A DNA stretch of 64,000 nucleotides from contig JAUSKM010000015.1 of assembly GCA_030646955.1 (NCBI GenBank), positions 285 through 64,284 of the forward strand, given 5' to 3'. This DNA is from a bacterium (lineage in GTDB: Bacteria; Patescibacteriota; Patescibacteriia; JACPHY01). This document shows positions 1,032-60,311 of this stretch, piece after piece (positions within the stretch are counted from its first letter, which is position 1; each line of letters starts with the position of its first letter). A program made the translations under genes and the position numbers. The notes under the pieces are model-generated. The model was not told the DNA's origin and made no database searches. It saw nothing but the letters and a program-made list of their open reading frames with translations.

Positions 1032-1068
1032 GAGACCGTAGAAAAAGTGGATAACACAACCCTCCTTT

Positions 1069-1266
1069 GTCATTTCGACAAGTCCGCGAGGAGAAATCTC
1101 ACCCATCCTTCCCGTCATTTCGACCGACGGAGTCCTCGAGGGAGTGGAGAAATCTCACCCATGCGTCGAACGGGCTCGAAATGACGGGGAGGAGAGCGGC
1201 GCGAGATTCCTCGGTCCCTCTTCGCGCGCGGAGCGCTTCGGAAGGACAAGCAGACCTCGGAATGAC
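1069..1266. repeat. Cluster of about 4 GTCATT..AATC repeat units (family T)
   Basis: Units: gtcatttcgacaagtccgcgaggagaaatctcac (1069-1102); gtcatttcgaccgacgg...ggagaaatctcac (1114-1158); an inverted half ctcgaaatgac (1175-1185); and an inverted long unit gcgagattcctcgg...cctcggaatgac (1201-1266). The cluster fills the rnhA-recJ spacer. Confidence 0.8.
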
Positions 1267-1300
1267 ATGCAACTTGATATCTCGATCGGATAGAAACACA

Positions 1301-7422: not shown

Positions 7423-7815
7423 TCAATCATCAACGCGCGTATTGTTTCGTGTATCGCCGAGTACTCCGAGCGCCGCTGCTGCCATGAACAAACCAAAATC
7501 GCGCACGGCGAGATCCCCGCGTGCCACGGCAGCGAGAATGGTCAAAAGGTGAAGCGCGACAACCGCGGCAACGATACGCACTCGCCACCCCACCACCAGC
7601 AACACGCCGAGGAGCACCTCCGCCACACCCACCACGCGCAGGAACTGCACGGGATCCATCGGCAACAATCCGATCATCCACGGCGGAACAAATCCCAGCC
7701 ACGACACGGTATCTGCAATCTTGCCATATCCAAAGATGAGCAGCACTGCACCCAACCCCAAACGCAACAGCAATGCCGCAGCGCTGGGGCCCGTAAAACG
7801 AGAAAGCATCCTCAT
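7423..7815 (-). CDS. DoxX-family membrane protein
   Basis: MRMLSRFTGPSAAALLLRLGLGAVLLIFGYGKI...VAEVLLGVLLVVGWRVR: about 4 TM segments with DoxX-like composition. The track start at 7980 runs through a repeat unit, so the start was trimmed to the ATG at 7815. Confidence 0.7.
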   Translation of the reverse strand: MRMLSRFTGPSAAALLLRLGLGAVLLIFGYGKIADTVSWLGFVPPWMIGLLPMDPVQFLRVVGVAEVLLGVLLVVGWRVRIVAAVVALHLLTILAAVARGDLAVRDFGLFMAAAALGVLGDTRNNTRVDD

Positions 7816-7837
7816 ACTTTGACAATAAAATTGGTGC

Positions 7838-7868
7838 GTGTGAGATTGCTTCGCATGCTCGCAATGAC
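7838..7868. repeat. Single family-T repeat unit (TTGC/GCAA type)
   Basis: gtgtgagattgcttcgcatgctcgcaatgac. Its reverse complement is gtcattgcgagcatgcgaagcaatctcacac. Confidence 0.8.
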
Positions 7869-7924
7869 AATACTTAGGAATAAGTGGACTTAACATTTTC
7901 GACACCGTTTTCAAACACGGTCTC

Positions 7925-9187
7925 CTACGGCTTGTATAATTCATCGATGGCCGGCTCCCACACCGTGCAATGACTTGCACCGCCTATCGCGAACAGTTTT
8001 TTGTCGGGGTAGCGCTTTTTCAGCTCGCGAAACACATCGATTGCATGTTCGTCGCGAACAATATTCATGTCCCGCAAGACATCGCTGGTGACCCTTCGTT
8101 CACCGACCAACTGCGGCTCGGTCATTTCGATAATCCTGGCCCTATCTTCTTTCCTTAACTCCGGATCATCGAACCGTTTCACAAGCTCCGCCAAGGAGAA
8201 GCCCATATGCCTCTGCAGCGAGGCATCGATATTTTCATTCGTGAGTTCGATGCCTAAAGAAACTGCCTCTTCAACGCCGCCCCCCGACAAAGCAACACCA
8301 CTACGTCTGCGTATCTCGTCGGCGGAGGGCCTCACATTGGATTCATGGGGTTTATTTTCGTCATAGGATGCATGGGCCCTGCGTGCGGCATAGGTGACCA
8401 TCCAGTCGGTCACATCTTGTGGTCCGTATTTGTGCTCACCGGTGGTTTCATCTTTCAACTTAAGGACCTCGCGAATCTGCTCGATTGTACGCGTATCCCA
8501 AGTCCGGACCTCTTTCCCTTCCCGCATCGCCAATAAAGCAATGTACGGCTCCTCCCCTTTTTCCGCGATAACCCGCGCGGGATCTTTTTTCAGGATTTCG
8601 CTCAACGACTCCCCCGGGTAGAAGTCCTCAAGCGAAAGTCCGCCTTCGATCAGCACGATGTCCGGATCTTCTTGCATCAACGCATCGACCGTGGGTTGCA
8701 TCGGCTCAACTGTATTTGCGTGCGCAAAACCACGTCCAATGAACTCCGCACCGTTTTCGGAACGTTTCTTGATCTCGTTGATTTCCTTACCGCTTTCGCG
8801 GGCCGCCTTCTCTTCCTCCGGCGTCAAAAGAAGGAGATGCAATTTCTCGATCTCAAGTGCATCCAAGCGCGCGCCACGATTACGCTCCACACGCACTTGA
8901 TCGTCGACCATATGCCCGTGTATTGCCTGCTTGGATTCTTTACTAATAATTCCTAGTGCCGCCTCCAATCCATCCACTTCTCCCTGATAATCCTCTTCTA
9001 GTGTTGCGCGCATTTCAGATTCGTCTTTCGAGGAATCCGCAGCATGAGACAGAAGACGAATATCTTGATCGATTTTCGTGATCCGCTCCTTGCGCACCTG
9101 GGCAATGGTCTCCGGGGTTTTCGCTGCAACTTTTTCCGGAACAGCCCCCATCGAATCCATTTTCGGCAGTTCTTTTCCCGAGGACAT
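7925..9187 (-). CDS. Hypothetical protein, possible TraB/Tiki/ChaN-superfamily domain with an N-terminal coiled-coil extension
   Basis: 420-aa ORF in a visibly lower-GC stretch. Candidate superfamily motifs occur in order: RGFAH (GxxH), IVLIEGG (E), NIVRDEHAI (RD), FAIGGASH (GxxH). Motif-level inference only. Confidence 0.6.
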   Translation of the reverse strand: MSSGKELPKMDSMGAVPEKVAAKTPETIAQVRKERITKIDQDIRLLSHAADSSKDESEMRATLEEDYQGEVDGLEAALGIISKESKQAIHGHMVDDQVRVERNRGARLDALEIEKLHLLLLTPEEEKAARESGKEINEIKKRSENGAEFIGRGFAHANTVEPMQPTVDALMQEDPDIVLIEGGLSLEDFYPGESLSEILKKDPARVIAEKGEEPYIALLAMREGKEVRTWDTRTIEQIREVLKLKDETTGEHKYGPQDVTDWMVTYAARRAHASYDENKPHESNVRPSADEIRRRSGVALSGGGVEEAVSLGIELTNENIDASLQRHMGFSLAELVKRFDDPELRKEDRARIIEMTEPQLVGERRVTSDVLRDMNIVRDEHAIDVFRELKKRYPDKKLFAIGGASHCTVWEPAIDELYKP

Positions 9188-9205: not shown

Positions 9206-9286
9206 TCAAGTCCGTTTTTCTCTCGTGCACAAACGCAACAGAAACGCCGCGATCTCGGAGCCCGTAAAGCGAAAAAACATCCTCAT
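9206..9286 (-). pseudogene. Duplicated, truncated doxX 5' end
   Basis: ATG at 9286 reads MRMFFRFTGSEIAAFLLRLCTREKRT*, compared with the doxX N-terminus MRMLSRFTGPSAAALLLRLG. Roughly 70 nt (9230-9300) matches 7761-7830 at an estimated 80 percent by eye, including the upstream leader. Confidence 0.55.
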
Positions 9287-9414
9287 ACTCTGACAATCAT
9301 CTTCGTCACCGCGTCCTGAAATACGCGAAACGCCTTCCGCCACTCTTTCTTGTGCGTGTATTGATCGTCATTGCTGACACGTACGCAGTACTGACACCCA
9401 CACCAATGATACCA

Positions 9415-9852: not shown

Positions 9853-9862
9853 TTTTCCATCT

Positions 9863-9942
9863 GTCATTTCGAACGCAGCGAGAAATCTCACACGATCCAA
9901 TAACTGCCGACACGCGAGATTGCTTCGCGGACTCGCAATGAC
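9863..9942. repeat. Inverted pair of family-T units (TTTC type + TTGC type)
   Basis: gtcatttcgaacgcagcgagaaatctcacacg (9863-9894) and cacgcgagattgcttcgcggactcgcaatgac (9911-9942). Confidence 0.8.
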
Positions 9943-9977
9943 AGTACGTATGTGATGCCGTGAAATTGCAATCGTTA

Positions 9978-11294
9978 TCATCCTTCGTACGCCCGCTGCA
10001 GCTGCTCCACATCAAACTTCTTCATCGCGAGAAATGCCTTCGTCACACGCGCACGACGTTCTGGATCCTCATCGCGCATCATCGCGTCCATTGCCGTGGG
10101 CACGATCTGCCAGGAAACGCCGTACGTGTCCTTGAGCCATCCGCATTGCTCTGCTTCCGGCACGGCAGAGAGCCGCTCCCAAAAATAATCGATCTCCGCC
10201 TGCGTATCGCACCGTATCAGGAACGAGAATGCCTCATTGAACGTAAACGCATGCTTATGCGCGCTGTCCATCGCTATAAACTGCTGCCCTACCAACGCAA
10301 ACTCTCCGTACATCACCGTCCCCTCCTTATCCGGCGCAGCATTCGCACCGTACCTACTCATATCGCCCACCTTCGCATCGCGAAATACTGACGCATAGAA
10401 CCGCATCGCTTCCTCTGCTTTCCCGCACCGCTCTCCAACGAACAGAAGCGATGGGGTGATGCGCTGGATACTCTTGCGACCGTCCATGCATATGAGCTGC
10501 CACGAGAGGCCATACCGGTCTTGCACCCATCCGTACCGCGTACTGAACGGATATGCACCAAGCTCCATCAGTACTTTCCCGCCATCCGCAAGCTGCTCCC
10601 AGAGCGCGTCCACCTCCGCAGGCGTTGCGCACGCGACCATGAATGAGATTGCCGGAGTAAATTGGAAGTACGGCCCTGCGCTGATGCACATGAACTCCTG
10701 CCCCGAGAGCACAAAGGACACAACATCTACCGCGCCAGAAGGCGTCCCCTGCAACGTAGTTACATACTCCACGCGCGAATCCGGAAAAAGCGACGTGTAA
10801 AATTCCGCCGCCTCTCGCGCCTCCTTGTCGTACCAAAGGTGAGGCACAATTTTTTGCATAGTGGCAACCTCCACCGTGCCGCGCTCGACGTACCGCTTGA
10901 AATTGGTGAGGATCGCCTGCCAACCATCCCGCTGCATCTGCTCCGGATTCAGCGACTCCGGATCAAACGTCTCGGTCACGTATACGTGCTCCAGCATCTG
11001 CGTGAACGTCACGCGCACATGCCGACCGTCATCCATGTCGTACTCGATCAATGCATACTTGCGAACGGCAGCATGCGTTCCCGAAAAATCAAACCTTGCG
11101 CTGCCATCCTTTGCAGCCATCACCGTCGTAAATCGTCCACCCACACGTACATCATTCTCCGCCGACGGCGCCTCCTACTCATCCGACGCAAACGCCCAGC
11201 CGACAATGTGCTCCGACTGCGTAAAACACTCCCACACCCTCGCCATGGGAGCGCGCACATCCACGTCCACTGTGATTGGCTGTTGTTTGTTCAT
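9978..11294 (-). pseudogene. SRPBCC(AHSA1-like) + 2x VOC (PF06983-like) fusion gene interrupted by an in-frame TAG
   Basis: From the ATG at 11294: MNKQQPITVDVDVRAPMARVWECFTQSEHIVGWAFASDE-TAG(11177-11175)[25 protein letters not shown]. The frame then continues through two VOC repeats ([17 protein letters not shown]...; [22 protein letters not shown]...). The same frame is used on both sides of the stop. Confidence 0.7.
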
Positions 11295-14368: not shown

Positions 14369-16171
14369 CTACTCCATAATGGGCGCGGCTGCGGTGCCTC
14401 GTGCCGGTTCGCTCGCTGCGATGACGCGGGAAGAAGCGAACACCTCCAGGGCGGCGTCAACGGTGGTGTCGCCGGTGGCGGGGCGGCAGGCGCGGTCGAG
14501 CTCTTCAAAGTGCTCCACCGCAATCGCGACGGGATCCAGGTGGAGGGGCGTGCCGACGATGCGTGCGATGGCGCTGGTGAGCGGCTCTATGATGCCGGGC
14601 TGCCGCACTTTCTCCGCGTGGAGCTTGTAGCGGAAGCCGATGGTGAGCGTCCCGTCTGCAATGCGTTGCGGGCGACCGCCTTCCAGGAGGTACGGGATGG
14701 AGCGGTTGACGTCCGCGAGATCGCGGATGATGTGGTGCCATTGTTGCTGGACTTTCGAGAGCGCCTCGGTGGCGCTCTGGATGACGGTGGATGTTGGAAG
14801 TTGCTCCCTCCTCCCGGCGGAAGGGGGAGGAATAAAACGCACCCCCTCTGACTCCCCCTCTTGAAGAGGGGGAGGAACCGGATCGGATGTATCTGTTACC
14901 GTCGTTGGGAGTTTGATGCTTGCAGGGGTACGAGCGCGCGAGGCGTGTTGGGGGGTACGGGCTGCACCGCCGGTGGTGGCGGGTGGAGCATCGTCGTCAT
15001 TGCTCCGCGATGCGTCTCGCTGAGACGAGGCGAGCTGCGCGGGATTCATTTTGCCTGGTGATGCGCTCGCTGCGGGCGCTGCGGGAACGAATGGGGAGCG
15101 CGCGAGGAGCGTAAGGACGGCAACCTCGAGGAGGAAGAACGGACGGTCTGCACGACCGATGCGATCCAGGAGTTCCGTGAACATGCGAAGCGCGAACACC
15201 TGTGCCGTCGCAACGGCACCTTGCTGGGCGGCAGCGCGTGCGGCGCTGCGCAGCTCGTTGATGATGTCGCGACAAAACGCATCCGCATCGCATCCCTCGG
15301 CTGATGCAGCATCGAGCGTGGCCAGGGCCAATGCGGTGTCGCCGGCACCAACCGCGCGAAGCAGCGTCTGGACATGCACCATGTTTGATTGCGGGAGCAC
15401 GAGCGCGGCAACATCGGCCGTCACTCGCTTCCCGCCCACCGCCATGAGCTGCCCCAACAGGGATTCTGCGTCACGCACGGAGCCGTCTGCCGCGCGGACT
15501 ACCTGCGCGAGCACCTCGTCATCCACGGCAACATCCTCTACCCCTGCAAGCATCCGGAGCCGCTCCGTGAGCGTCCCATCCCCCACGCGCCGGAACGTAA
15601 AATGCTGGCACCGTGACGTGATCGTCTCCGGCACCTTCTGCATTTCCGTTGTCGCAAGGATGAAGTGGACGTGCTCTGGCGGCTCCTCCAGCGTCTTGAG
15701 GAGCGCATTAAAGGACGCCGTCGAGAGCATGTGCACCTCGTCAATGATGTACACCTTCTTTGCTGCAACTGCGGGGGCGATACGCACCGCCTCGATGATG
15801 TACTCACGCACCTTCTCCACCTGCGTGTTGGATGCCGCATCAATCTCCACGACATCCATGCAACGTCCTGCGGTAATTTCCTCGCACCGGATGCAGGCGT
15901 TACAAGGCACGGGAAGTGTTTGCTTCGACCGGTGCTTCGCGCGAGTTTCTTCGTCGCTCCGCTCCTCGGAATGACGAGGAGCGAGGCAATTCACCGCCTT
16001 CGCCAGGAGCCGCGCGGTGGTGGTCTTTCCAACGCCGCGCGGACCGGAGAAAAGGTACGCATGCGCAACACGACCCGCCGCGATAGCCGCGACGAGCGTG
16101 CGCGTGACATGCTCCTGCCCCACGACGTCCTCAAACGTCTGCGGGCGATGCTTACGATACAGTACGGGCAT
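14369..16171 (-). CDS. dnaX: DNA polymerase III subunit gamma/tau
   Basis: MPVLYRKHRPQTFEDVVGQEHV, Walker A GPRGVGKTT, DEVHML, TSRCQ. Start trimmed to the ATG at 16171. It carries two repeat-derived segments (features at 14805 and 15941). Confidence 0.9.
   Translation of the reverse strand: MPVLYRKHRPQTFEDVVGQEHVTRTLVAAIAAGRVAHAYLFSGPRGVGKTTTARLLAKAVNCLAPRHSEERSDEETRAKHRSKQTLPVPCNACIRCEEITAGRCMDVVEIDAASNTQVEKVREYIIEAVRIAPAVAAKKVYIIDEVHMLSTASFNALLKTLEEPPEHVHFILATTEMQKVPETITSRCQHFTFRRVGDGTLTERLRMLAGVEDVAVDDEVLAQVVRAADGSVRDAESLLGQLMAVGGKRVTADVAALVLPQSNMVHVQTLLRAVGAGDTALALATLDAASAEGCDADAFCRDIINELRSAARAAAQQGAVATAQVFALRMFTELLDRIGRADRPFFLLEVAVLTLLARSPFVPAAPAASASPGKMNPAQLASSQRDASRSNDDDAPPATTGGAARTPQHASRARTPASIKLPTTVTDTSDPVPPPLQEGESEGVRFIPPPSAGRREQLPTSTVIQSATEALSKVQQQWHHIIRDLADVNRSIPYLLEGGRPQRIADGTLTIGFRYKLHAEKVRQPGIIEPLTSAIARIVGTPLHLDPVAIAVEHFEELDRACRPATGDTTVDAALEVFASSRVIAASEPARGTAAAPIME
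14805..14874. repeat. Two adjacent G/C-tract hairpins inside the dnaX 3' half
   Basis: ctccctcctcccggcggaagggggagga and ctccccctcttgaagagggggag. Translated as PPLQEGESEGVRFIPPPSAGRRE. Confidence 0.65.
15941..15975. repeat. Family-T repeat unit inside the dnaX zinc-module region
   Basis: The reverse complement gtcattccgaggagcggagcgacgaagaaactcgcg is near-identical to the intergenic unit gtcattgcgaggagcgaagcgacgaagcaatcccgg at 24924-24961. Translated as RHSEERSDEETRA. Confidence 0.75.
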
Positions 16172-17921: not shown

Positions 17922-20342
17922 CTACCCCAGCTGTGACCGCTCCATGATCTCCTGCTCCACGAGCATGCGATCGCGTCCGTAGGTGAGGCGCGAGAGCTGC
18001 CGAATGGCATCCGCCACCTTGGGATCGCCGTGCGGCGGCGGACGCGTGTAGAAATTGAACGGCCGCTGCGCGGTGTTGTCAATCATGAGTCGGATGTACG
18101 CATTGCGCGCCTCGATGTTCATGACATCGTGCTGCGTCACGGGCGGGCCAAGCTGTGTCGCGATGGTCTCCGCATCGTCCACACCCACGCGGAAGCTCAC
18201 AACGGAGCCCACGTTCCCAAAAATCGCATCACGCACAGCCGTGTCGTTGTTCTGCACGAGCTGGCCAATGTACTGATGCGCCATGATAAGGTTCAACCGG
18301 TACTTGCGCGCCTCGGCAAGAATGGTCGCAATGGAATCGGTTACGAAGTTCTGAAACTCGTCAATGTAGAGGTAGAAGTCCTTGCGATCCGCCTCTGGCA
18401 TGTCCGCACGCGCGAGCGCGGCGATCTGCAATTTCGTCACACAGATGAGACCCAGGAGCTTCGCGTTCATCTCGCCCACTTTGCCCTTTGAGAGGTTCAC
18501 GAGCAGAATCTTTTGCTTGTCCATTATTTCACGGAAATCAATGCCGGAATGTTGCTGACCGATGATGTTGCGCACCATCGTATTCTCAATAAACCTGCCG
18601 ATCTTTGAAACGAGGTACGGAAGCATCTCGCCCTTGGTCTGACTGCTCGTCTGGGGCAGCTCTTTCTCCCAGAAGGCGCGCACGATAGGATCCGTCACCT
18701 GCTGAAGTTTGAGCTTCTGGTACCCCTCGTCCGTAAGGATGCGTGGGATTTCCACGAGCGTCCCCGGGTTCTGCATGTCCGCCATGAGCGTAATCATCGC
18801 GTTGCGCATGTAATGCTCAAACATCGGCCCGATCATCTGCGGATCGGAGACGAGCTTGTAGAAGATTGCGATCATCTCCTGCGTCGCAAAATCAATCGCC
18901 TCCGGCGTTTTTGCTTCCAGCATGTTGAGGCCTACCGGCCGCTCAACATCGGACGGGTCAAAAACAACAACATCACCCGCGCGCTCCTTGGGGATGTTCG
19001 GAAGCACGTCCTCCACGAACGAGCCGTGCGGATCAATGACGCACACACCCTTTCCGGCGCGAATGTCCTGGATCACCATGTTCAACATGATGTTGGTCTT
19101 TCCGACGCCCGTGCTCCCGATGAGGTACATGTGCCGCTGGCGATCCTGCTGCTTCATGCGTACCGTCACGTTACGGCCGCGGTATGACGCATCGCCCAAA
19201 ATGACGCCCTCCGTGGGGAGTGATACTGGCGGTGCTGCACGCCGTGCGCCGAGCCATTCAATGTTCGGCGTCTGCGCGGACGGCAGCGGGAGATGCCACA
19301 CACTCGCCATCTCCTCTGTATTGAGCACCACACGCTGCCGCTCATCAAACTGGCGGTACACAAAGCGGCGGATGCGTGCATCATCCGCGCTGGCCTTCCC
19401 CACCACGAACATGTTGCCGTACTCGGGCATCCCGTACTGCGCAAACGCCTGCGTGATGGAATTGAGGACGAGATCTGTACGCTCTGCCGTTGCTGCAGAT
19501 GCAACGATACGGACGTTCGCATCGAGTCCAAACTTTGATGCCTTCTCCTCCAATCCCTTCACGATCTCCTGCTCCATGGGTGAGAGCTGGTGCTGCTCTT
19601 TTTCTTTCGTACCGCCACCGATACCCGCGATTGCTCTCCACGATGTGCCACCTGCGGCATCCTTCCCCTGCTGCATGTCGCGCGCTTTCTGCACCCCGCC
19701 CGAACGCCACGAGCGGCGTGCAGACCGGACGACGAACTGCATCGCCGCACCCTCCTGCTCGCCAATCTTGCTCATCGCATTCGTGAGCGCATCGAGCGGA
19801 TCGGATTCCATCTTGCGGTAGGACTTGATGGGGTAGTATCCCGCGCGCTTGAATGTCACCGTCGCACCGCGAATAACGCCGTGCGGCTGGAAAATATTGT
19901 AGTCACTCGCCTCACTCATCGAGGCATCGGGCTCCTGCGCATGGAGCTGCTCCTCAATATACCCCTGGTGCCGGCGCGGTATTGCAATGTAAAACTGTAC
20001 CTTGCCGGCGGACGCAACAATTTCGAACGCGAACGTATCATCGCGCCCAAAGAGCCAGGCCTTCAGTCCGCGCTGGGCGTGCAGTCCCGCAATCGCGGTA
20101 AAAAACGCCTCGGTCTGCGCGATGGATTCCTGAATTTGCTGCGAGTTTGCCACGCCCTGCTCCTCCTCACGACCGCGCTCGCGCGGGACAAGCACCTTGA
20201 GCACCACCAAATCAAATGTCCGCACGACGGAGACGTGGTGCCGGGCAATCGCTCGCACGATGAACAGCGCCACTATGAACGCACTGCCGGCGCCGAGAAA
20301 CACCGCGAGCGCGATGAGAATCTGGAAAATAGACAGCGTCAT
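17922..20342 (-). CDS. VirD4/TraD/TraG-like membrane-anchored AAA ATPase (type IV coupling-protein-like)
   Basis: N-terminal TM segment (ILIALAVFLGAGSAFIVALFIV), Walker A HMYLIGSTGVGKTN, Walker B DFYLYIDEFQNF, and a C-terminal AHQYIGQL...FRVG region. Start trimmed to the ATG at 20342. Confidence 0.8.
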   Translation of the reverse strand: MTLSIFQILIALAVFLGAGSAFIVALFIVRAIARHHVSVVRTFDLVVLKVLVPRERGREEEQGVANSQQIQESIAQTEAFFTAIAGLHAQRGLKAWLFGRDDTFAFEIVASAGKVQFYIAIPRRHQGYIEEQLHAQEPDASMSEASDYNIFQPHGVIRGATVTFKRAGYYPIKSYRKMESDPLDALTNAMSKIGEQEGAAMQFVVRSARRSWRSGGVQKARDMQQGKDAAGGTSWRAIAGIGGGTKEKEQHQLSPMEQEIVKGLEEKASKFGLDANVRIVASAATAERTDLVLNSITQAFAQYGMPEYGNMFVVGKASADDARIRRFVYRQFDERQRVVLNTEEMASVWHLPLPSAQTPNIEWLGARRAAPPVSLPTEGVILGDASYRGRNVTVRMKQQDRQRHMYLIGSTGVGKTNIMLNMVIQDIRAGKGVCVIDPHGSFVEDVLPNIPKERAGDVVVFDPSDVERPVGLNMLEAKTPEAIDFATQEMIAIFYKLVSDPQMIGPMFEHYMRNAMITLMADMQNPGTLVEIPRILTDEGYQKLKLQQVTDPIVRAFWEKELPQTSSQTKGEMLPYLVSKIGRFIENTMVRNIIGQQHSGIDFREIMDKQKILLVNLSKGKVGEMNAKLLGLICVTKLQIAALARADMPEADRKDFYLYIDEFQNFVTDSIATILAEARKYRLNLIMAHQYIGQLVQNNDTAVRDAIFGNVGSVVSFRVGVDDAETIATQLGPPVTQHDVMNIEARNAYIRLMIDNTAQRPFNFYTRPPPHGDPKVADAIRQLSRLTYGRDRMLVEQEIMERSQLG

Positions 20343-20359
20343 GCGTACGAGCGCGATGC

Positions 20360-20809
20360 TTACTTCTGCTTCCGGGCGAGCGCGAGGATTGCGTCGGTCT
20401 TCACCTTTGCTTCTTGCGTAAGAAACCACCGGTTGAGCCGCGGGATGACGTGCAGCCATCGAACGATGTCTCCGTGCGCTTCCCGCACATCCACCGGACC
20501 ACGCACGAACATGGCTTCAAGGCGTTCTGCAAGACGGCTGGCAGCGCCACGGAATGCTTGCTGCACCTGCGGGTCCAAACCCATGTAGAGCGCCTTGAGC
20601 TGCTCATCTGCCAATGCAATCTCAATGTCTTCACGCAATGGTGATTTCTGCACGCGCGGCGCCGCCGAGGATTGCGGAATCGACGCGCGCGCTGCAGGCG
20701 ACGCGCTGGCACGCTCCGGCGCTGCCGGGCGTTGCTCGAGCTGTTCCGTGATGCGCGCGAGGGTGCGCGGCTGCTCGACAATCGGTTGTTCCGGTGATCC
20801 GAGCGGCAT
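20360..20809 (-). CDS. Hypothetical protein (disordered N-terminus, helical C-terminus), 18 nt upstream of the ATPase gene
   Basis: 149-aa ORF on the same strand, tightly spaced with the ATPase gene. The C-terminal half is LKALYMGLDPQVQQAFRGAASRLAERLEAMF.... No motif recognised. Confidence 0.55.
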   Translation of the reverse strand: MPLGSPEQPIVEQPRTLARITEQLEQRPAAPERASASPAARASIPQSSAAPRVQKSPLREDIEIALADEQLKALYMGLDPQVQQAFRGAASRLAERLEAMFVRGPVDVREAHGDIVRWLHVIPRLNRWFLTQEAKVKTDAILALARKQK

Positions 20810-20866: not shown

Positions 20867-22306
20867 CTATGCCCCCCCTCGAACCTTCGGCCCGTCTTGC
20901 GTATCTTCAACGGTGTACCCCAGCGCGGCAATCTGCGCGCGGAGACGATCAGCGCGTGCCCAATCCTTCTCGGTGCGTGCGTGCTCTCGCGCACGCACGA
21001 GCTCCAGCACCTCCGGCGGAACGACGAATGGTTTACCCAAAACGTCGCGCAGCCCTAGTGCAAATACCTCATCCGCATACGCAACGAACGCGCTCTGCTC
21101 CACGGTTCGCTCGCTCTTCTTGAGGCATTCCCAGAGCAACGCGAGCGCTTTTGGCGTGTCGAGATCGTCGTTCATGGCATCCAAGAACCGCTCGGTGGTC
21201 TTGTGCACCTTCACCTTCAGCTGCGCGCTCACGCGTACCGGCGGCTTGGGGAATTCGCGGCACTGTGTTCGCAGATGCTCCAGCGCATGCTGCGCAGCGG
21301 TGAGGGATTCCCAGGTAAAGTTGAGCGGCGAACGGTAGTGCGCGCCCAGCACCAAATACCGATATGCAAGCGGATCAATCCCCCGCTCAATCAACTGCGT
21401 GATGGTAATGAGGTTCCCCTCGGACTTCCCCATGCGCTTGCCGTCCACGGTCAGGAATGCGCCATGGAGCCAATACGCTGCGAGCGGCTTCCCGTACGCC
21501 GCTTCGGACTGCGCAATCTCGTTCGTGTGATGGACGGGAATGTGATCAATCCCGCCCGTGTGGATATCAAACGGCTGCCCCAACAGCTCACGGCTCATGA
21601 CGGAGCACTCCAAATGCCACCCGGGGAACCCTGTCCCCCACGGCGATTCCCACTCCTGCTGACGTTTCCTCTGTTCCCCCCCCTCCCGCTGGAAGGGGGG
21701 GCTGGGGGGGGTAGGGTTTGAAAGTTTCCACAGCGCGAAATCGTGCGGCAATCGCTTCTCGCCCACCGCAACGCGCATACCGCCCGCCTTCTCCTCCAGC
21801 TTCTGACCGCGGAACGCCGTGCCGTAGGACGCGAGCTTCGCGGTGTCAAAATACACACCGTCCGATGTCGTATAGGTGTACCCCTGCTTCTCCAAACGCT
21901 CTACCAGCGCAATCTGCTGCGCGATGTACTCCGTTGCCTTGGGCATCGCGTCTGGTGTGAGGATGTGCAGCCGCTCAAGGTCCTGCAGGAATGCCTGCGT
22001 GTAAAAATCCGCCAGTTCCCGCGCAGACTGCTTGCGCTGCGCAGCTGCGCGTTCCAATTTATCCTCGCCGGTATCCGCGTCGCCCACGAGATGTCCTACG
22101 TCCGTAATGTTCATGACGTGCTTCACCCGCAACCCATTGAGCAGGAGCGTCCGCCGAAGCACATCCGCAAACACGTACGACCGCAAATTCCCAACGTGCG
22201 CAAAATCGTACACCGTCGGCCCGCACGTGTACACGCGAACGCTCCGACCGCGCAGCGGCCGGAACGGTTCGATCGTCTTGGTGAGGGAGTTATGGAGCGC
22301 GAGCAT
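20867..22306 (-). CDS. cysS: Cysteine--tRNA ligase
   Basis: VYTCGPTVYDFAHVGNLRSY gives the HIGH-type motif, GWHLECS the zinc site and KRMGKS the KMSKS-type motif. Start trimmed to the ATG at 22306. It contains a repeat-derived insert (feature at 21676). Confidence 0.92.
   Translation of the reverse strand: MLALHNSLTKTIEPFRPLRGRSVRVYTCGPTVYDFAHVGNLRSYVFADVLRRTLLLNGLRVKHVMNITDVGHLVGDADTGEDKLERAAAQRKQSARELADFYTQAFLQDLERLHILTPDAMPKATEYIAQQIALVERLEKQGYTYTTSDGVYFDTAKLASYGTAFRGQKLEEKAGGMRVAVGEKRLPHDFALWKLSNPTPPSPPFQREGGEQRKRQQEWESPWGTGFPGWHLECSVMSRELLGQPFDIHTGGIDHIPVHHTNEIAQSEAAYGKPLAAYWLHGAFLTVDGKRMGKSEGNLITITQLIERGIDPLAYRYLVLGAHYRSPLNFTWESLTAAQHALEHLRTQCREFPKPPVRVSAQLKVKVHKTTERFLDAMNDDLDTPKALALLWECLKKSERTVEQSAFVAYADEVFALGLRDVLGKPFVVPPEVLELVRAREHARTEKDWARADRLRAQIAALGYTVEDTQDGPKVRGGA
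21676..21716. repeat. G/C-tract element inside cysS
   Basis: ccccccccctcccgctggaagggggggctggggggggtaggg. Translated as NPTPPSPPFQREGGEQ. Near-identical to the element in rfbD at 56235. Confidence 0.75.
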
Positions 22307-23927: not shown

Positions 23928-24176
23928 TCCTAGCTGCTCCACGCGAGATCCCTGGACGATCCTCGGAATGACGAGGAAAGGAAACTCTGTATGACGGGAG
24001 ATTAAAAGGGGGACCTCTGCAAAAGTTGTGTTATTGCGAGCCGAACCCGTGAAGCGTGGCAATCCCGGCGTTAGGTTGACCGAGATTGCGGAGCCTGTCC
24101 CGAGTACGCGATGGATCCGCGTGTGTGACTCCTCACCATGACACCGTAGGGTTTTTTGGAGGTCTCAAGGGACAAT

Positions 24177-24704: not shown

Positions 24705-24803
24705 ACTACTGCGCAGTCATCCACAGTATAGCACGCTGGGCAGAGTACGCACCGTAGAAATAATTTCTGAACGGGATAGAGGACGTTGTGGGTACCCTTG
24801 ATA

Positions 24804-24961
24804 GCCGGAATTGCCACGTCGAGGACTCCTCGCAATGACAATACCGGTGTCATTGCGAGTCCGCGAAGCAATCCCGGCCATGTGCAGCACTGTGCTGCGT
24901 CGCCATCGCAAGAGTCCTGCTATGGCCGGGATTGCTTCGTCGCTTCGCTCCTCGCAATGAC
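24804..24961. repeat. Three family-T units, two of which form a long hairpin
   Basis: gccggaattgccacgtcgaggactcctcgcaatgac (24804-24839) faces gtcattgcgagtccgcgaagcaatcccggcc (24849-24879). A third, inverted unit ggccgggattgcttcgtcgcttcgctcctcgcaatgac lies at 24924-24961. Confidence 0.85.
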
Positions 24962-24998
24962 AACGTGGGCGTGACGAGGGGAATGACGGCTTCACGTA

Positions 24999-26239: not shown

Positions 26240-26310
26240 ACAGTCATACATGGCCACCTCTCCCCCTCTAGCTCCCCCTCCCCCCATGAGTACGTGCGGG
26301 GAGGGGGAGG
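26240..26310 (+). repeat. About 72-bp G/C-tract element, long form, copy A
   Basis: acagtcatacatggccacctctccccctctagctccccctccccccatgagtacgtgcggggagggggagg aligns along its length with 45806-45878 and with the reverse complement of 60164-60235. Confidence 0.85.
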
Positions 26311-26417
26311 ACAAGAACATCGGAGTCGCTGGAGACACTTTTCGCATCCGCCACAAATGGAAGCGCCAGCGCGATACCAAGCATCGCGAGGATCAACACC
26401 TTCGTACGACGTTGCAT
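26268..26417 (-). CDS. Possible 49-aa secreted peptide in the dnaK-dnaJ spacer
   Basis: MQRRTKVLILAMLGIALALPFVADAKSVSSDSDVLVLPLPARTHGGRGS has a signal-peptide-like N-terminus, but the last third is encoded by the repeat element. Speculative. Confidence 0.2.
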   Translation of the reverse strand: MQRRTKVLILAMLGIALALPFVADAKSVSSDSDVLVLPLPARTHGGRGS

Positions 26418-29701: not shown

Positions 29702-29731
29702 AGCATAAAAAAGTATTGGCACTCTCGTCAA
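29702..29731 (-). promoter_or_regulatory. Candidate sigma-70-like promoter of the hrcA operon, overlapping CIRCE
   Basis: Minus strand: TTGACG (29731-29726), an 18-nt spacer, then TATGCT (29707-29702). A GGGAGAGGA SD follows, then the ATG at 29688. Confidence 0.45.
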
Positions 29732-29776: not shown

Positions 29777-29857
29777 TCCTTTGCGAGTCCGTGAGGGCGC
29801 AGCAATCTCTCTGCCTGATTGGCCGGGATTACCACGTCGCGGACTCCTCGCAATGAC
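29777..29857. repeat. Two family-T units (one degenerate, one inverted)
   Basis: cctttgcgagtccgtgagggcgcagcaatctctc and ggccgggattaccacgtcgcggactcctcgcaatgac. Confidence 0.7.
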
Positions 29858-29943
29858 ACAAACATACGAAATTCTACCTCTCAAAAAGAACGAGACCCGC
29901 ACTTTCGTACGGGTCTCAGGTAATACTCCTCGAAGTTTGCGGC

Positions 29944-43884: not shown

Positions 43885-44952
43885 TCACTGCGCTGCTTGC
43901 ATGACCACGCGCGCAAGCGTGGCGGCGGCGTTGTCGGGAAACATGGTGGCGATGGAACGACCGAGTTTGGCGCGACGGTTGGCATCCTCGAGAAGCGCAT
44001 GGATGCGTTGTGTGAAGACGCCGGGCGCGACGAGGGCCCGCGAATTCCAAACCTCCGCAGCACCGCGCTCGTTGAGTTGCTGCGCGTTGTCTTCCTGGTG
44101 AGTGGATGGCATGGGCACCAGCACCGTCGGTTTACCCAGGCACCCCAGCTCCGCGATCGTCCCCATGCCCGCACGACTCACCACAAGATCCGCAGCAGCG
44201 AGCGCGGGAATCATATCGTCGGCGAGAAACTCAAATTGTCGATAGGATCCGGCCCACTCCCCCTTCCCAGCGGGAGTGGGGGGAACATTGCCCTGCTTCC
44301 CTTTCCCCGTCACATGAATCACGTCGGCAATCGCCGTCAGCTCGGGCAATGCGGCCCAGACAAGGTGGTTGAGCGCCATTGCGCCGGTGCCACCGCCAAG
44401 AATGAGGAGTACGTGTCGATTTCCGGAGAATCCAAAATGCCGCTGTGCTTCGCGCACATCCGCCACGCACGCATCGCGCACGGCGGCACGCACCGGCACG
44501 CCGATGCCCTCAGCGCCAAATGTCGCCGTCCGCGCGGACGAAAACCGCGCCACAAGCGTGTTGGCCAATGATGGACGCGCGTCCAGTTGGTGGATGACGA
44601 TCGGGATGCGCAGCACGCGCGCCGCAAGCATCACCGGCACCTGCACGTATGACCCCGCGCCCACCACCGTATCTGGCCGCTCCCGACGCAGAAACGCAAG
44701 TGCGCGCACGAACGCCCATGCAATTGCAAACGCATCCACGATATTCCGCCCATCCAGGTACCGTCGCAGCTTGCCTGCCGGAAACGCGATGAACCGGATC
44801 CCGTCGCGCTCCACCAACACCCGCTCCGGCCCCCGCCGCGTCCCAATCCACATCATCACCGCCCGCGGCCGCACATGCCGAATCTCCTCCGCGACAGCCA
44901 AGAGCGGGGTCACCGATCCCAATGTTCCGCCGCCGGTGAAGAGGATGGTCAT
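43885..44952 (-). CDS. murG: UDP-GlcNAc--lipid I GlcNAc transferase MurG
   Basis: MTILFTGGGTLGSVTPLLAVAEE glycine-rich loop, a GT28 two-domain layout, and C-terminal RAGMGTIAEL. Confidence 0.9.
   Translation of the reverse strand: MTILFTGGGTLGSVTPLLAVAEEIRHVRPRAVMMWIGTRRGPERVLVERDGIRFIAFPAGKLRRYLDGRNIVDAFAIAWAFVRALAFLRRERPDTVVGAGSYVQVPVMLAARVLRIPIVIHQLDARPSLANTLVARFSSARTATFGAEGIGVPVRAAVRDACVADVREAQRHFGFSGNRHVLLILGGGTGAMALNHLVWAALPELTAIADVIHVTGKGKQGNVPPTPAGKGEWAGSYRQFEFLADDMIPALAAADLVVSRAGMGTIAELGCLGKPTVLVPMPSTHQEDNAQQLNERGAAEVWNSRALVAPGVFTQRIHALLEDANRRAKLGRSIATMFPDNAAATLARVVMQAAQ
44254..44284. repeat. G/C-tract hairpin inside murG
   Basis: cccactccc ccttcccagc gggagtggg has a 9-bp perfect stem. 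Translated as PPTPAGKGEWAG. Confidence 0.6.
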
Positions 44953-45656: not shown

Positions 45657-45729
45657 AGTGCGCTCCTTGATGCTCGGTGCTCGGAATCTGGGCTCTTCGC
45701 CCTTTTCTGTCGCTCATGCTCTGTTTGAT

Positions 45730-45878
45730 CCCCTCCCTCCCCGCGCGTACTCGCGGGGGGAGGGAGGGTTAGGGAGGGAGAGGTGGGACGGAATGGCAAC
45801 ATGGTACAGCCCATCCATAGCCACCTCTCCCCCTCCTGCTCCCCCTCTCCCCACGAGTACGTGCGGGGAGGGGGAGGG
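45730..45878. repeat. Inverted pair of long G/C-tract elements (about 150-bp composite palindrome)
   Basis: 45730-45803 (cccctccctccccgcgcgtactcgcggggggagggaggg...) is in the same orientation as 60164-60235. 45806-45878 (acagcccatccatagccacctctccccctcctgctccccctctccccacgagtacgtgcggggagggggaggg) is in the opposite orientation. Confidence 0.85.
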
Positions 45879-45885
45879 TAAGGAG

Positions 45886-47022
45886 CTAGCGCCGATGCCG
45901 TGCCGCCGTGCCGCGCGTCCGGCTAAGGTTGAGCACGATACCAGCCGCACCCAGCGAGACCGCCAACGCGGTGCCGCCAGAGGAGACGAACGGCAGCGGC
46001 AAGCCCGTGAGCGGGAGCATGCCGACCATCGCGCCAATGTTCACGACGGACTGCACGCCCCACCACGCAGCGATGCCGACAAGCACGAGGCGGTCAAACT
46101 CATCTGTCGCATCCATGGCATTGCGCAGCACGCGCGCAATGACGTACGCAATCAGCGCGAGAAACGCGAGCGAGAAGATGAAACCGATTTCCTCGGCGAC
46201 AATCGCGAAGATGGAGTCCGAGATGACCTCCGGGAGGAACGCAAACTTCTGCCGCGAGTGCCCCAGGCCAACGCCAAACCATCCGCCCGATCCTACAGCG
46301 AGGAGCGCCTGGTTTACCTGATACCCGATGCCCTGGGGATCTAGCTCCGGGTGCAGGAACGCGGTGAGCCGCGCGACGCGGTACGGCGCGGCCGCGATGA
46401 GCGCAGTGAGCGCCGCGATGCCGCCCAACGCGAGGAGGCCGAGGTGGCGCAACTGCATCCCCCCCACGAACGCCATCGCCACGCCAATCGCCGCGATAAT
46501 CAGCATCGTACCGAGGTCTGGTTGGAGCCCGATGATGCCCAGTACGCCACCAAGAACGCCGAGGAACGGCAGGAATCCCCTCGCCCACGCCTTCGGATGG
46601 AACCACAACGGACGCCGCACCGTTGCCCACGACGCGAGCGCGAGGATGAGTCCAACTTTTGCAAGCTCTGCGGGCTGGAACGTCACGAAACCGATATCGA
46701 GCCAGCTCTGCGCCCCACCGCGCGTCACGCCGAGGCCCGGAATGAGCACCGCAATGAGGAGCACCACACTCCCTGCGAGCGCCCAGAGCCCGCACCGCTC
46801 CAGAACAGGCCGCCGCAGCCGCGCGGCGAGCACGAGGAGGACCGCGCCCGGGAGCACGCCGGACCAGAGCTGATGGACCAAGTAGTACGACCGCGAGCCG
46901 TACCGTTCGTACGCGAGCGGCGCAGAGACGGACGAGAGAAAAATGAGCCCCAGTGCCACGAGCAGCGCGACCGCAGCAAAGAACCGCGTGTCCGTCTCCT
47001 GGAGGAATCGCGGCATGCGCAT
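45886..47022 (-). CDS. ftsW: SEDS-family peptidoglycan polymerase FtsW/RodA
   Basis: 378 aa with about 10 TM segments. Motifs FQPAELAK, LQPDLGT and LPLTGLPLPFVSSGGT. Confidence 0.9.
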   Translation of the reverse strand: MRMPRFLQETDTRFFAAVALLVALGLIFLSSVSAPLAYERYGSRSYYLVHQLWSGVLPGAVLLVLAARLRRPVLERCGLWALAGSVVLLIAVLIPGLGVTRGGAQSWLDIGFVTFQPAELAKVGLILALASWATVRRPLWFHPKAWARGFLPFLGVLGGVLGIIGLQPDLGTMLIIAAIGVAMAFVGGMQLRHLGLLALGGIAALTALIAAAPYRVARLTAFLHPELDPQGIGYQVNQALLAVGSGGWFGVGLGHSRQKFAFLPEVISDSIFAIVAEEIGFIFSLAFLALIAYVIARVLRNAMDATDEFDRLVLVGIAAWWGVQSVVNIGAMVGMLPLTGLPLPFVSSGGTALAVSLGAAGIVLNLSRTRGTAARHRR

Positions 47023-48084: not shown

Positions 48085-48242
48085 CGTCACCTTCGAGCGA
48101 TACTTCACTTCCGTCATTTCGAGCGCAGCGAGAAATCTCACACGCAATACTCTATCGAACACGATACGGTTGACATGTACTGCTTACGAATGTTTCTCAA
48201 CCCCCACATCATGTGAGATTCCTCGGCCGACCTCGGAATGAC
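48085..48242. repeat. Family-T units upstream of mraY (one degenerate, one TTTC type, one inverted TTCC type)
   Basis: gtcatttcgagcgcagcgagaaatctcacacg (48113-48144) and tgtgagattcctcggccgacctcggaatgac (48212-48242). Confidence 0.8.
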
Positions 48243-48720
48243 GAGCAGAAGCATACCCCACCCCATTCATATTCCAGAGCAGCACGGTACCCACAAGCGC
48301 GGCGAATGCGAGGAGTACTGCGGCAGCGAGGAGGAACACAGATGCCGTGGCGGGCGCAGGCGCGTTGCGGGGCGTGAGACCAAATGCGAGCGCAATGTTG
48401 AATGCGATGAACGCCGAGCCCGTGCGAGCGATGCGCGCGAGATCATGCCATGAACCAAAGGCATCGATCCCAAACGTGGTAGTGTAATGCGTCACGAGCG
48501 ATGCCGCGTCCGGCACATTTGGCACCGCGAGCGCCGCAATCCATGCACCCGCGAGCAGTGCACCGGCCGCGACGGCCATCCAGCGCGTTTGCGAATTCGC
48601 GAGCAGTGGATGCGAAAACGCGCACACGCGCCGCACGCATGCACGCTGCACCCGCCCAACTGCCGTCCATAGCTCCCCCTCGCTCCGGGATGGAGCATCC
48701 GGGGAGATGCGGTCATCCAT
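48184..48720 (-). CDS. Hypothetical membrane protein (3 TM); C-terminal 20 aa encoded by a repeat unit
   Basis: MDDRISPD...[20 protein letters not shown]...[23 protein letters not shown]...[20 protein letters not shown]. Start uncertain. The tail is family-T sequence. Confidence 0.45.
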
Positions 48721-48774
48721 ATGCCTCATCCTATGCCCATCCGCTCTCTCCAGCGTAGCATTGTCCCACCGTTC

Positions 48775-48803
48775 TTGACATCTCCGGAGCCGTGTGATGG
48801 AAT
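48775..48803 (+). promoter_or_regulatory. Candidate promoter for rpmA
   Basis: TTGACA (48775-48780), a 17-nt spacer, then TGGAAT (48798-48803). About 100 nt upstream of rpmA. The -10 is weak. Confidence 0.3.
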
Positions 48804-48900
48804 ATATCCAGGAGATGCATACGATAGCATCGCTTTTTTGTTGCAGCCGCCCGCCCCGCGAAACATTCGCGAAGCATGGCCGGCTTGCAGCTCGTTTTTT

Positions 48901-49185
48901 ATGGCACATAAAAAGGCAGGTGGCTCAACACGGTTGGGCCGCGATTCCCAGGGGCAGCGGCTTGGCGTGAAGCGCTCTGACGGGCAAGTTGTCCGTTCGG
49001 GCAACATCATCGTCCGGCAGCGCGGAACATCGTTCCGCCCGGGCACCAACGTCCAGCGCGGCAAGGATGACACACTCTTCGCGGTCGCCGATGGCGTCGT
49101 GAAGTTCGTCAAACGCACCCGCTTGACGTTCGCCGGAAAGAAGGTGGTGCGGAATGTCGTCTCGGTGGAGCAGCCGCGCGGCTAA
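48901..49185 (+). CDS. rpmA: 50S ribosomal protein L27
   Basis: [61 protein letters not shown] is a near-canonical L27. Start trimmed to the ATG at 48901. Confidence 0.95.
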
Positions 49186-55697: not shown

Positions 55698-56600
55698 TCA
55701 CCGATGACCGAGGTACTCCGCAAGCGCCTGCTCCCATCCGCGCAAGGGTGGGAGCTTTGTCGTGCGGAGTACCGAGTGCGTGGGGCGTCTGGCAGCGCGC
55801 GGAAACTGCGACGCGGAGACGGGAACTAGCGTCCCACGCCACCCAGCGCACGTGAGCGCCTCCTGCGCAAAACGGTACCAGGTACACGCCCCGTCGTTCG
55901 TGCGATGATAGATGCCGCTCTCCGTAGTGCGCGCCACCAGATCCCGGGTTGCTTGCGCGAGGTCTGGCGCATACGTTGGCGATGCCCGCTCATCATCCAC
56001 CACTTCCAACCGATCGCTCGCCGCCGCTCGCTCGATAATCACGTCCACGAACGAACGCTTTCCGCCTGCCGACTGCGCCGCTGTACCAAAGAGCCGCGAG
56101 AGCCGGATGATGTGCCACTGCCATCCTGGATGCGCAGCCGCAACACGCTGCACCTCCTGCTCGCCCAGGAACTTTGACCGTCCATAGGCGGAGCAAGGAT
56201 CCGGTATCGCATCCTCGGCATATCCCGCTCCTATCCCCCCTCCCGCTGGGAGGGGGGGAAGGGGGGGGAGGTCCTGCAGCGCTCCAAACACATAATCCGT
56301 CGAATAGTGCACGAACGCCGCTCCAACAGCAGCGGCTGCATCTGCCAAATGCCCAACCGCGTATCCGTTCACCGCATCGGCAACGGCTTGCTCCTCCTCT
56401 GCGCGGTCCACCGCATTATACGCCGCCGCGTTGATGAGGATCTCCGGTGCAGCCGCCGCGATACGCGCCCGCACCTGCACCGCATTGGTGATGTCGAGAT
56501 TACTGCGATCCCACGCGATCACCTCGCAATCAGAAAACGCTCGGACGAGTGCGTGTCCGAGCATCCCCCTTGCACCCACAATGCAGACGCGCATACTCAT
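55698..56600 (-). CDS. rfbD: dTDP-4-dehydrorhamnose reductase
   Basis: VCIVGARGMLG Rossmann motif, STDYVF, YGRSKFLGE. It contains a repeat-derived insert (feature at 56235). Confidence 0.85.
   Translation of the reverse strand: MSMRVCIVGARGMLGHALVRAFSDCEVIAWDRSNLDITNAVQVRARIAAAAPEILINAAAYNAVDRAEEEQAVADAVNGYAVGHLADAAAAVGAAFVHYSTDYVFGALQDLPPLPPLPAGGGIGAGYAEDAIPDPCSAYGRSKFLGEQEVQRVAAAHPGWQWHIIRLSRLFGTAAQSAGGKRSFVDVIIERAAASDRLEVVDDERASPTYAPDLAQATRDLVARTTESGIYHRTNDGACTWYRFAQEALTCAGWRGTLVPVSASQFPRAARRPTHSVLRTTKLPPLRGWEQALAEYLGHR
56235..56271. repeat. G/C-tract element inside rfbD
   Basis: cccccctcccgctgggagggggggaaggggggggagg. Translated as DLPPLPPLPAGGGIG. It matches the cysS copy at 21676. Confidence 0.75.
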
Positions 56601-60071: not shown

Positions 60072-60163
60072 ACCGTCTCCATTCTCGCACACGAACGGCG
60101 CCAAAGCAACTCCTCAAAAAAGTAGGTTCTTCCGGCTTTCGTGTCGCCGAGTACGCTTCTTAT

Positions 60164-60235
60164 CCTCCCCCTCCCCGCACGTACTCGTGGGGGGAGGGGG
60201 AGCGAGAGGGGGAGGGGTGGCTATGGATGGGCTGT
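60164..60235 (-). repeat. About 72-bp G/C-tract element, long form, copy C
   Basis: The reverse complement acagcccatccatagccacccctccccctctcgctccccctccccccacgagtacgtgcggggagggggagg is nearly identical to 45806-45878. Confidence 0.85.
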
Positions 60236-60311
60236 GTGATCGTGCGATGCAGATGGGGCGACAACCGACAGGAAAGCCGGAAGAACCAAAAAAGTACGAC
60301 ATCGCGCCGCA

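Follow-up and report, generated by a model that had tools for sequence, protein, structure and literature searches.

What are the short, oriented palindromes that recur along a 64,000-nucleotide (nt) stretch of contig JAUSKM010000015.1 (assembly GCA_030646955.1; this whole stretch is referred to as the window), whose gene content fits Patescibacteria, and what acts on them? Their structure, stem covariation, placement and neighbouring genes point to members of the CGTC-tagged repetitive extragenic palindromic (REP) superfamily, or Ssn-related motifs (SRM), with an Ssn-type GIY-YIG nuclease as partner, a reading to which we assign a probability of roughly 0.78. The element matches a described REP-type superfamily (CGTC REPs, PMC3733652; the NTS/SRM motifs cut by Ssn, PMC11893778), a correspondence which the preliminary description of the window had itself named as telling against its reading. 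What is new here is modest, namely the Patescibacteria host, a GA-interrupted architecture that the published pattern misses, and compensated stems that coexist; a placement rule that holds across phyla, with a sense unit 0-40 nt past stop codons, may also be new. None of these results overturns current understanding.

Read in their own orientation, the units of the window share a common plan, consisting of a YGTC tag, ATT plus two variable bases, GAG, a variable middle, CGA(A/G), the complementary dinucleotide plus AAT, a C and a tail. Tags in the window are TGTC or CGTC (ATGTC in the unit headed at 1266), and tails are CTCACACG/CTCGCG or CCCGGCC, also given as CTCACAC or CCCGGCC; alphaproteobacterial copies carry the tail CCAG. 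Among 150 units aligned with a covariance model, the GTC, the 5' GA, the closing T and the next C are each present in 150/150, and the base before GTC is T in 131 and C in 14. The stem comprises five base pairs (bp) of the form A-T-N-N-N, with A-T as the first pair (columns 8/47) in 146 of 148 distinct rows and T-A (146) or C-G (2) as the second (columns 9/46), and the last three pairs vary while staying complementary. The internal loop between the helices holds an invariant GA opposite GA or GAA, which probably form tandem G.A pairs, and the variable middle folds into a hairpin unconstrained in sequence and length, with G-C as the closing pair in 118 of 141 distinct units. A first helix of 5 bp is thus followed by GA/GA(A) and a second helix of 2-10 bp; the loops have at least 3 nt, and the inner hairpin ranges from 3 to more than 40 nt. 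K-turn, loop E, ribozyme and attC identities were considered for the internal loop and rejected, its size and consensus bases being unsuited to them.

Exact GTCATTBCGA heads number 16 in the window, compared with 0.78 +/- 0.85 in dinucleotide shuffles (0/100 shuffles reach 16). The head at 8121, which has neither a 3' arm nor a model hit, is probably a chance match. When the window was scanned without filters, a covariance model based on 42 units from many genomes reported 15 units at E<0.01; these include all 13 units listed beforehand, together with two further ones at 23940-23976 (minus strand) and 24026-24071 (plus strand), and a partial inverted head at 1146-1185 (minus strand) was likewise missing from that list. 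Units occur singly, as inverted pairs and in clusters, at a density in the source genome of about 1 per 4 kb, in intergenic spacers. A strict unit definition applied to the window and the first 124 fetched loci yields 217 units, versus 0 in the same sequences reversed. The individual features, with their model scores, are as follows.

1065-1105, plus strand: unit with tag TGTC, stem ATTTC/GAAAT and tail CTCACCC, antisense to the local genes; exact head, 26.8 bits, E 4e-5.
1110-1161, plus strand: unit with tag CGTC, stem ATTTC/GAAAT and a long inner hairpin; 22.7 bits.
1146-1185, minus strand: partial inverted head GTCATTTCGAG, which overlaps the preceding unit at its tail; an exact head, not a model hit.
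1198-1270, minus strand: unit with stem ATTCC/GGAAT and a 45-nt inner region, sense, its head 34 nt past the recJ stop (1301; Pfam RecJ); 26.4 bits.
7837-7872, minus strand: unit that follows the stop at 7925 and precedes the doxX start at 7815, with stem ATTGC/GCAAT and tail CTCACACG; at 43.4 bits it scores highest of all model hits.
9859-9894, plus strand: unit with stem ATTTC/GAAAT, the antisense partner in the pair 9859-9946; 35.4 bits.
9911-9946, minus strand: unit with stem ATTGC/GCAAT, sense, its head 35 nt past the stop at 9978; 39.7 bits.
15938-15979, minus strand: decayed in-frame copy in dnaX (..PRHSEERSDEETRAK..) with a broken 3' arm; 21.2 bits and alignment of homologues.
23940-23976, minus strand: unit with stem ATTCC/GGGAT (T.G wobble); 18.8 bits, E 0.007.
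24026-24071, plus strand: unit with a mutated tag, GTT (GTTATTGC..GGCAATCCCGGC); 26.1 bits.
24103-24146, minus strand: possible, uncertain remnant GTCATGGTGAGGAGTCACACACG, 34 nt past the stop at 24177; weak model hit, 11.8 bits, E 0.6.
24802-24843, minus strand: unit with stem ATTGC/GCAAT and tail TCCGGC; 26.3 bits.
24845-24880, plus strand: unit with stem ATTGC/GCAAT and tail CCCGGCCAT, the inverted partner of 24923-24965; 34.2 bits.
24923-24965, minus strand: unit of the 32-nt type (GAG-GAGCGAAGCGAC-GAAG), sense, its head 37 nt past the dnaJ stop (24999; Pfam DnaJ); 36.1 bits.
29820-29861, minus strand: unit with stem ATTGC/GTAAT (G.T wobble), between the terminator 29918-29891 and a promoter-like site before hrcA; 30.3 bits.
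48109-48144, plus strand: antisense unit (stem ATTTC/GAAAT), 35 nt ahead of the start of the mraY open reading frame (ORF; Pfam MraY); 39.8 bits.
48210-48246, minus strand: unit with stem ATTCC/GGAAT, sense, supplying codons 222-234 of ORF 48184-48909, as seen in its translation; 34.3 bits.

The claim that the dinucleotides of the stem vary together holds for the 13 listed units: eleven are complementary, with GC..GC (heads 7868, 9942, 24839, 24849 and 24961), TC..GA (1069, 1114, 9863 and 48113) or CC..GG (1266 and 48242), one has a GC..GT wobble (29857), and pairing is broken in the dnaX copy (15975). The additional unit headed at 23972 contributes a further wobble. The window holds just three stem variants, which amount to few independent events, and the sample was therefore widened to other genomes. 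Stems found in other loci comprise ATTGC, ATTAC, ATTCC, ATTTC, ATTCT, ATCCT, ATCGC, ATCCC, ATCAC, ATGCT, ATGCC/ATGGC and ACTGC, each with a matching 3' arm. In a test sample of 139 candidates, taken from loci not chosen by stem and with the dominant TTGC arm left out, exact complementarity occurs in 36 (53 with wobble), whereas 2000 rounds of partner shuffling give 3.8 on average and 12 at most. When 150 units are aligned with the model, pairing is seen in 94.1% of cells, versus 88.2% after shuffling (0/500); both-sided changes occur in five of the seven stem pairs, and slid controls drop to 16-61%. The larger sample thus retains the signal, and the proposal that covariation reflects a hairpin, whether of RNA or of single-stranded DNA (ssDNA), is greatly strengthened by at least 10 compensated variants across phyla. 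The templated copy mechanism once offered as an alternative is not needed, although it may still operate. Only the inverted pairs are predicted to fold better than shuffled sequence, with -46 kcal/mol (z -8.5) for 24845-24965 and -16.5 kcal/mol (z -2.2) for 9859-9946. Rfam models recovered only 3 tRNAs in the window above gathering scores and, at lax thresholds, nothing beyond spurious miRNA-like matches, which fall on the inverted pair.

The repeat type is broadly distributed. A scan with the GC stem variant, covering one genome per species, returned the motif, among the matches listed, from Alpha- and Gammaproteobacteria, Desulfobacterota, Bacteroidota, Chloroflexota, Cyanobacteria, Planctomycetota, Zixibacteria and Patescibacteria, together with one Helicobacter and one Sporomusa, and the motif is also abundant among the IMG/VR matches listed. 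A literature search with the sequence strings, in both DNA and RNA form, returned just primers and unrelated matches. The finding concerns a widespread repeat type, extending from Bradyrhizobium to Patescibacteria and tied to the recently described Ssn nucleases.

The association with a nuclease emerges from the flanks of the units. A GIY-YIG motif search of six-frame translations of unit-bearing loci identified a 96-amino-acid (aa) ORF in a Planctomycetota contig (L064), located between two inverted units with their heads outward. Pfam assigns proteins of this type to GIY-YIG only, and NCBIfam offers no specific model for this nuclease. Eighty metagenome loci were chosen by the L064 protein and a 48%-identical relative alone. 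Of the 73 with sufficient flank, 57 have a sense unit no more than 160 nt upstream of the gene, an antisense unit no more than 160 nt downstream is present in 57 of 76, and units stand on both sides in 43 of the 80. The nearest upstream unit is sense in 41 cases versus antisense in 18, and the nearest downstream unit is antisense in 39 versus sense in 25. The arrangement resembles a miniature insertion sequence, with the GIY-YIG gene enclosed by two inverted units whose heads point outward. Unit density in these loci is 1.3 per kb, the covariance model finding 356 units in the 370 kb searched, and some loci carry more than 20 units in arrays. Two loci (L170 and L199) each hold over 20 near-tandem units spaced by about 45-50 nt beside the nuclease gene, forming BIME-like clusters. 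The paired units around one gene may differ, with ACTGC or ATCGC upstream and ATTGC downstream. IMG/VR also contains GIY-YIG genes bordered by canonical NTS-type hairpins (e.g. L259), and their products share 41-48% identity with the L064-type protein (E 1e-18 to 1e-24). Matches in a protein search for ssn are dominated by Chryseobacterium.

These flanks also bear on the possibility that the units are classical REP/REPIN elements moved by a RAYT, that is, an IS200/IS605-type tyrosine transposase, or miniature inverted-repeat transposable elements (MITEs) moved by a DDE transposase. Short palindromes occurring singly, inverted and clustered would suit either, as would composites with inverted ends, represented by the 72-nt element at 1114-1185, which the unit at 1110-1161 forms together with the partial head at 1146-1185, and by positions 4923-4567 of locus L015. 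However, the tag is YGTC rather than GTAG, no transposase is found beside CGTC repeats (PMC3733652), and the gene enclosed by inverted units is a GIY-YIG nuclease in 43-57 of the 80 loci. All-against-all clustering of ORFs of at least 90 aa from 120 unit-bearing loci produced common families only and no transposase family, the genes of the window not having been scanned individually for Y1 transposases. In addition, single units lack an inverted partner, and no target duplication was seen. Transposition by a RAYT or a DDE enzyme is accordingly close to negligible as an explanation. In the region 3970-4923 of L015 (Candidatus Doudnabacteria), the composite spans about 360 nt, with inverted GTCATTGCGAGG heads at its ends and five tandem repeats of about 34 nt, and a GIY-YIG ORF with an in-frame TAG lies 350 nt downstream of it.

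If the units are CGTC REPs with an Ssn-type partner, the mechanism can be sketched by analogy with SsnA. A unit strand exposed as ssDNA would form the hairpin, to which a GIY-YIG nuclease of the Ssn family, about 95-105 aa long, would bind, reading the stem together with the 3' C and cutting a few nt 5' of the GTC tag. Such an enzyme would be expected to be inactive on duplex DNA, on RNA and on the complementary strand. For nucleases of the L064 clade, the expected substrate would be ssDNA carrying GTCATTGCGAG..CGAAGCAATC, and also GTCATTGCGAGCGAAGCGAAGCAATCTC. A GIY-YIG module flanked by units is a likely source of the dispersed copies, and ssDNA binding and cleavage would presumably also take place in the source organism.

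The placement of the units relative to genes is strongly oriented. They had been described as lying mostly just upstream of gene starts, but a sense unit 0-40 nt past a stop codon fits better. This holds for the window as well as for over 120 loci from other phyla, selected without regard to the nuclease. In those loci the unit head falls 0-40 nt past the stop of a long same-strand ORF in 78/170 cases, versus 19/153 for the mirror (antisense) arrangement, for which a further peak at 60-100 nt is consistent with the second unit of a pair; among single units alone, 22 are sense and 3 antisense within 0-40 nt of a stop. Convergent spacers hold 35 units and divergent spacers 21, against an equal background. 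In the window, the first unit past each of 6-7 stop codons is sense (stop to head: 1301 to 1266, 7925 to 7868, 9978 to 9942, 24999 to 24961 and 29944 to 29857, probably also 24177 to 24142, and ORF 48184 reads into 48242), so that the rule is kept at every spacer. In this genome the sense unit typically lies 30-90 nt past the stop and is sometimes followed by an inverted partner. In four spacers of the window (1301-1266, 9978-9942, 24999-24961 and 24177-24142) the stop-to-head distance is 34-37 nt; these gaps contain no conserved sequence, and the intervening sequences are unrelated. The minus strand is G-rich throughout the window according to its GC skew and carries nearly all genes, and the distribution of units (10 minus versus 6 plus) reveals no significant replication-strand bias.

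Such a position invites the proposal, made for classical REPs, that the units are selected mainly as RNA, serving as 3'-end hairpins that stabilise or attenuate mRNA, with the nuclease link secondary. The excess of sense heads just past stops, among single units too, the surplus in convergent spacers and the sense orientation of the first unit past the stops of the window all suit this proposal, as does the preponderance of G.T wobbles over A.C mismatches (16 versus 9). However, as RNA, single units have no folding advantage over shuffles (z -0.1 to +0.8), and 6 of the 16 units in the window are antisense. The terminator scan found no unit coinciding with a terminator-like site and no T/U tract after the units, and identity with intrinsic terminators was rejected on this lack of overlap and on the tails, CTCACAC or CCCGGCC. 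Past the stop at 29944 there is a canonical intrinsic terminator (29891-29918, minus strand) with a 12-bp stem and a T tract, and the unit at 29820-29861 lies beyond it, ahead of the next promoter-like site (29702-29731, minus strand) before hrcA. Moreover, invariance falls on unpaired bases of the tag, the loop and the tail, which suits recognition by a protein, and SsnA does not bind RNA (PMC11893778). Selection mainly at the RNA level is therefore improbable. The placement itself could arise either from a strand-specific insertion preference or from an added RNA-level benefit, and it offers a testable clue to how the repeats spread.

The units could instead be orphan relics that spread earlier, or arrived with an ssn module since lost, and now decay with nothing acting on them. 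A tblastn search of the 64-kb window and of 57 kb from three related genomes (L121, L122 and L124) found no GIY-YIG ORF, and the window contains degenerate copies at 15938-15979, 23940-23976, 24026-24071 (tag GTT) and 24103-24146 as well as the partial one at 1146-1185; the size of CGTC REP families also varies widely between related strains (PMC3733652). However, most copies keep perfect stems and all invariant bases. In relatives at only about 50% protein identity, intact units are likewise numerous, share the CTCACAC tail and show five stem variants, which argues for continuing maintenance or spread in the lineage. Only about 6% of the genome of about 1 Mb is visible, and the host may encode the nuclease in the remainder. 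We regard the relic explanation as very unlikely.

The dnaX protein of the window is identical to a protein from an NCBI metagenome-assembled genome, and its nearest named relatives, at about 48% identity, belong to Candidatus Uhrbacteria. The unit copy in dnaX is a decayed in-frame insertion in a loop between AVNC and PCNAC. Three relatives (P0004, P0005 and P0008) have a different decayed unit, with tail CCCGG, in the same loop (about 10150-10290 in L122), and the loop is short and free of units in 5 other relatives. It may be either an insertion hot spot or the site of an old insertion later lost. Near dnaX, an 845-aa homologue of TrwB/TraG-like coupling proteins is encoded at 17922-20459 on the minus strand (DUF8128 in relatives), and its synteny is conserved in the lineage (L121, L122 and L124).

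The units also affect gene prediction. As had been suggested, several ORFs are artificially extended by them, the starts being 1031 rather than 1118 for RNase H, 7815 rather than 7980 for DoxX and 9852 rather than 9981 for the VOC gene. The C-terminus of the 48184 ORF is indeed formed by a unit, whose sequence falls within the last 20 codons. The secreted-looking 22308 ORF probably starts at 23927, the longer predicted ORF running through units. Since units lengthen or alter the predicted ORFs of RNase H, DoxX, VOC, 48184 and 22308, masking them before gene calling is advisable. The window has two doxX paralogues (7759-7835 and 9230-9306) whose 5' ends, together with the 20 nt preceding the start codon, are 78% identical, and only the first has a unit directly upstream; as an empty-site comparison the paralogues revealed nothing on insertion, the homology ending before the unit. 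A second, unrelated palindromic family, with a C-rich and a G-rich arm (e.g. CTCCCCCTCCCC-N14-GGGGAGGGGGAG), occurs at 545-572, 14804-14831, 21672-21706, 26245-26317, 44253-44287, 45728-45886, 56224-56268 and 60155-60248, mostly between genes, with one copy within the C-terminal part of dnaX.

Several observations weigh against assigning the units to the CGTC REP superfamily with an Ssn-type partner. Besides the lack of a GIY-YIG ORF in the window and in the three related genomes, folding predictions for single units as DNA give no advantage over shuffles (z +0.2 to +1.6), and the case for a hairpin therefore rests on covariation and not on folding energy. The units were compared with families CGTC-1 to -4 through the text description of these families. 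The link to the Ssn family, drawn from sequence similarity, runs via NTS-flanked GIY-YIG genes and not via SsnA itself or cd10448. SsnA lost activity when the sequence of the stem was changed and its structure kept (PMC11893778), and the compensated stems that coexist here, three in the window, sit uneasily with this sequence dependence of the Neisseria meningitidis enzyme. Finally, the published SRM pattern, HGTCWYN(0-2)YYVSBRHN(0-5)WNVSBRGN(0-2)RNCYNB, matches 0/217 units. In the 80 GIY-YIG loci it gives 2 matches versus 328 units by our own unit finder, and in controls it matches NTS and NTSvar and gives 263 matches in NTS loci. Because of its failure on all 217 units, the GA-interrupted subtype escapes the published search, and counts of Ssn motifs in the literature are likely underestimates.

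A more ambitious scenario, which is doubtful at present, would make the GA-interrupted units a distinct and very large class of Ssn substrates, recognised by nucleases that read structure and a few unpaired bases. The stop-proximal rule would then result from GIY-YIG-driven, strand-specific insertion into a transiently single-stranded coding strand, the lagging-strand template, and Ssn modules would mobilise CGTC REPs, including those of Patescibacteria. If this were true, structure reading would explain how one genome accommodates several compensated stems, Ssn modules would be the long-sought mobiliser of CGTC REPs, and an Ssn system in Patescibacteria might govern the fate of incoming ssDNA.

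Among known systems, the subterminal hairpins of IS200/IS605 elements resemble the units in being imperfect hairpins that are read as ssDNA and cut a short distance outside; however, these elements have two different ends, tnpA/tnpB genes and a tyrosine enzyme, none of which is present here. The GTAG REP/BIME/REPIN elements with RAYT of Escherichia coli and Pseudomonas are likewise short tagged hairpins occurring singly, as inverted doublets and in clusters, with a domesticated nuclease gene between its own repeats and a proposed recognition of the hairpin as ssDNA, but their tag is GTAG and their enzyme an HUH/Y1 transposase instead of a GIY-YIG nuclease, and the units of the window are not members.

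The correspondence with the CGTC-tagged REP superfamily is much closer. Di Nocera et al. (BMC Genomics 2013; PMC3733652) defined families CGTC-1 to -4, in which an unpaired CGTC/TGTC (or CCTC) tag precedes a stem of 8-9 bp that nearly always starts with complementary A-T and tolerates non-complementary residues, with loops of 4-5 nt and a tail that is mostly CCA. These repeats frequently form inverted dimers, are located after coding regions in several phyla and have intragenic copies notably in replication and repair genes; members include the Neisseria dRS3/NTS and the Rickettsia RPE-4/-6 (PMC3733652). The units share the YGTC tag, the A-T/T-A stem base, the C-first tail, the inverted dimers (often of unequal units), the position after coding sequences, an in-frame copy in a replication gene (dnaX) and the absence of a nearby transposase. 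They differ in the 5-bp helix interrupted by GA/GA(A) in place of an 8-9 bp stem, in the inner hairpin of 3 to >40 nt, and in the tails of the window, CTC or CCC instead of CCA.

Chenal et al. (Nat Commun 2025) reported that NTS (oriented dRS3, CGTCATTCCCGCGMAVGCGGGAATCYRG) and the related SRM flank small single-domain GIY-YIG genes, Ssn, of about 95 aa, and that SsnA binds the hairpin as ssDNA only, on one strand only, and cuts a few nt upstream; in N. meningitidis, transforming DNA containing the motif is integrated less as a result of the Ssn/NTS system (PMC11893778). Mutagenesis of SsnA substrates identified the C after the palindrome as most critical for binding and the 3 nt before the palindrome as most critical for cleavage (PMC11893778), and these are the positions occupied by the invariant 3' C and GTC of the units described here. 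The host is a member of Patescibacteria, which the main text of that paper does not mention. Unlike NTS/SRM, the units, characterised here from sequence alone, have no perfect 8-9 bp palindrome, having instead 5 bp, a GA/GA(A) loop and a free second stem-loop, and they include several stem variants in one genome. Like NTS/SRM, they are oriented hairpins with (C)GTC 5' of a stem starting in AT and a C directly 3', they reach hundreds of copies per genome, and they enclose, between inverted copies, a GIY-YIG gene of about 95-105 aa.

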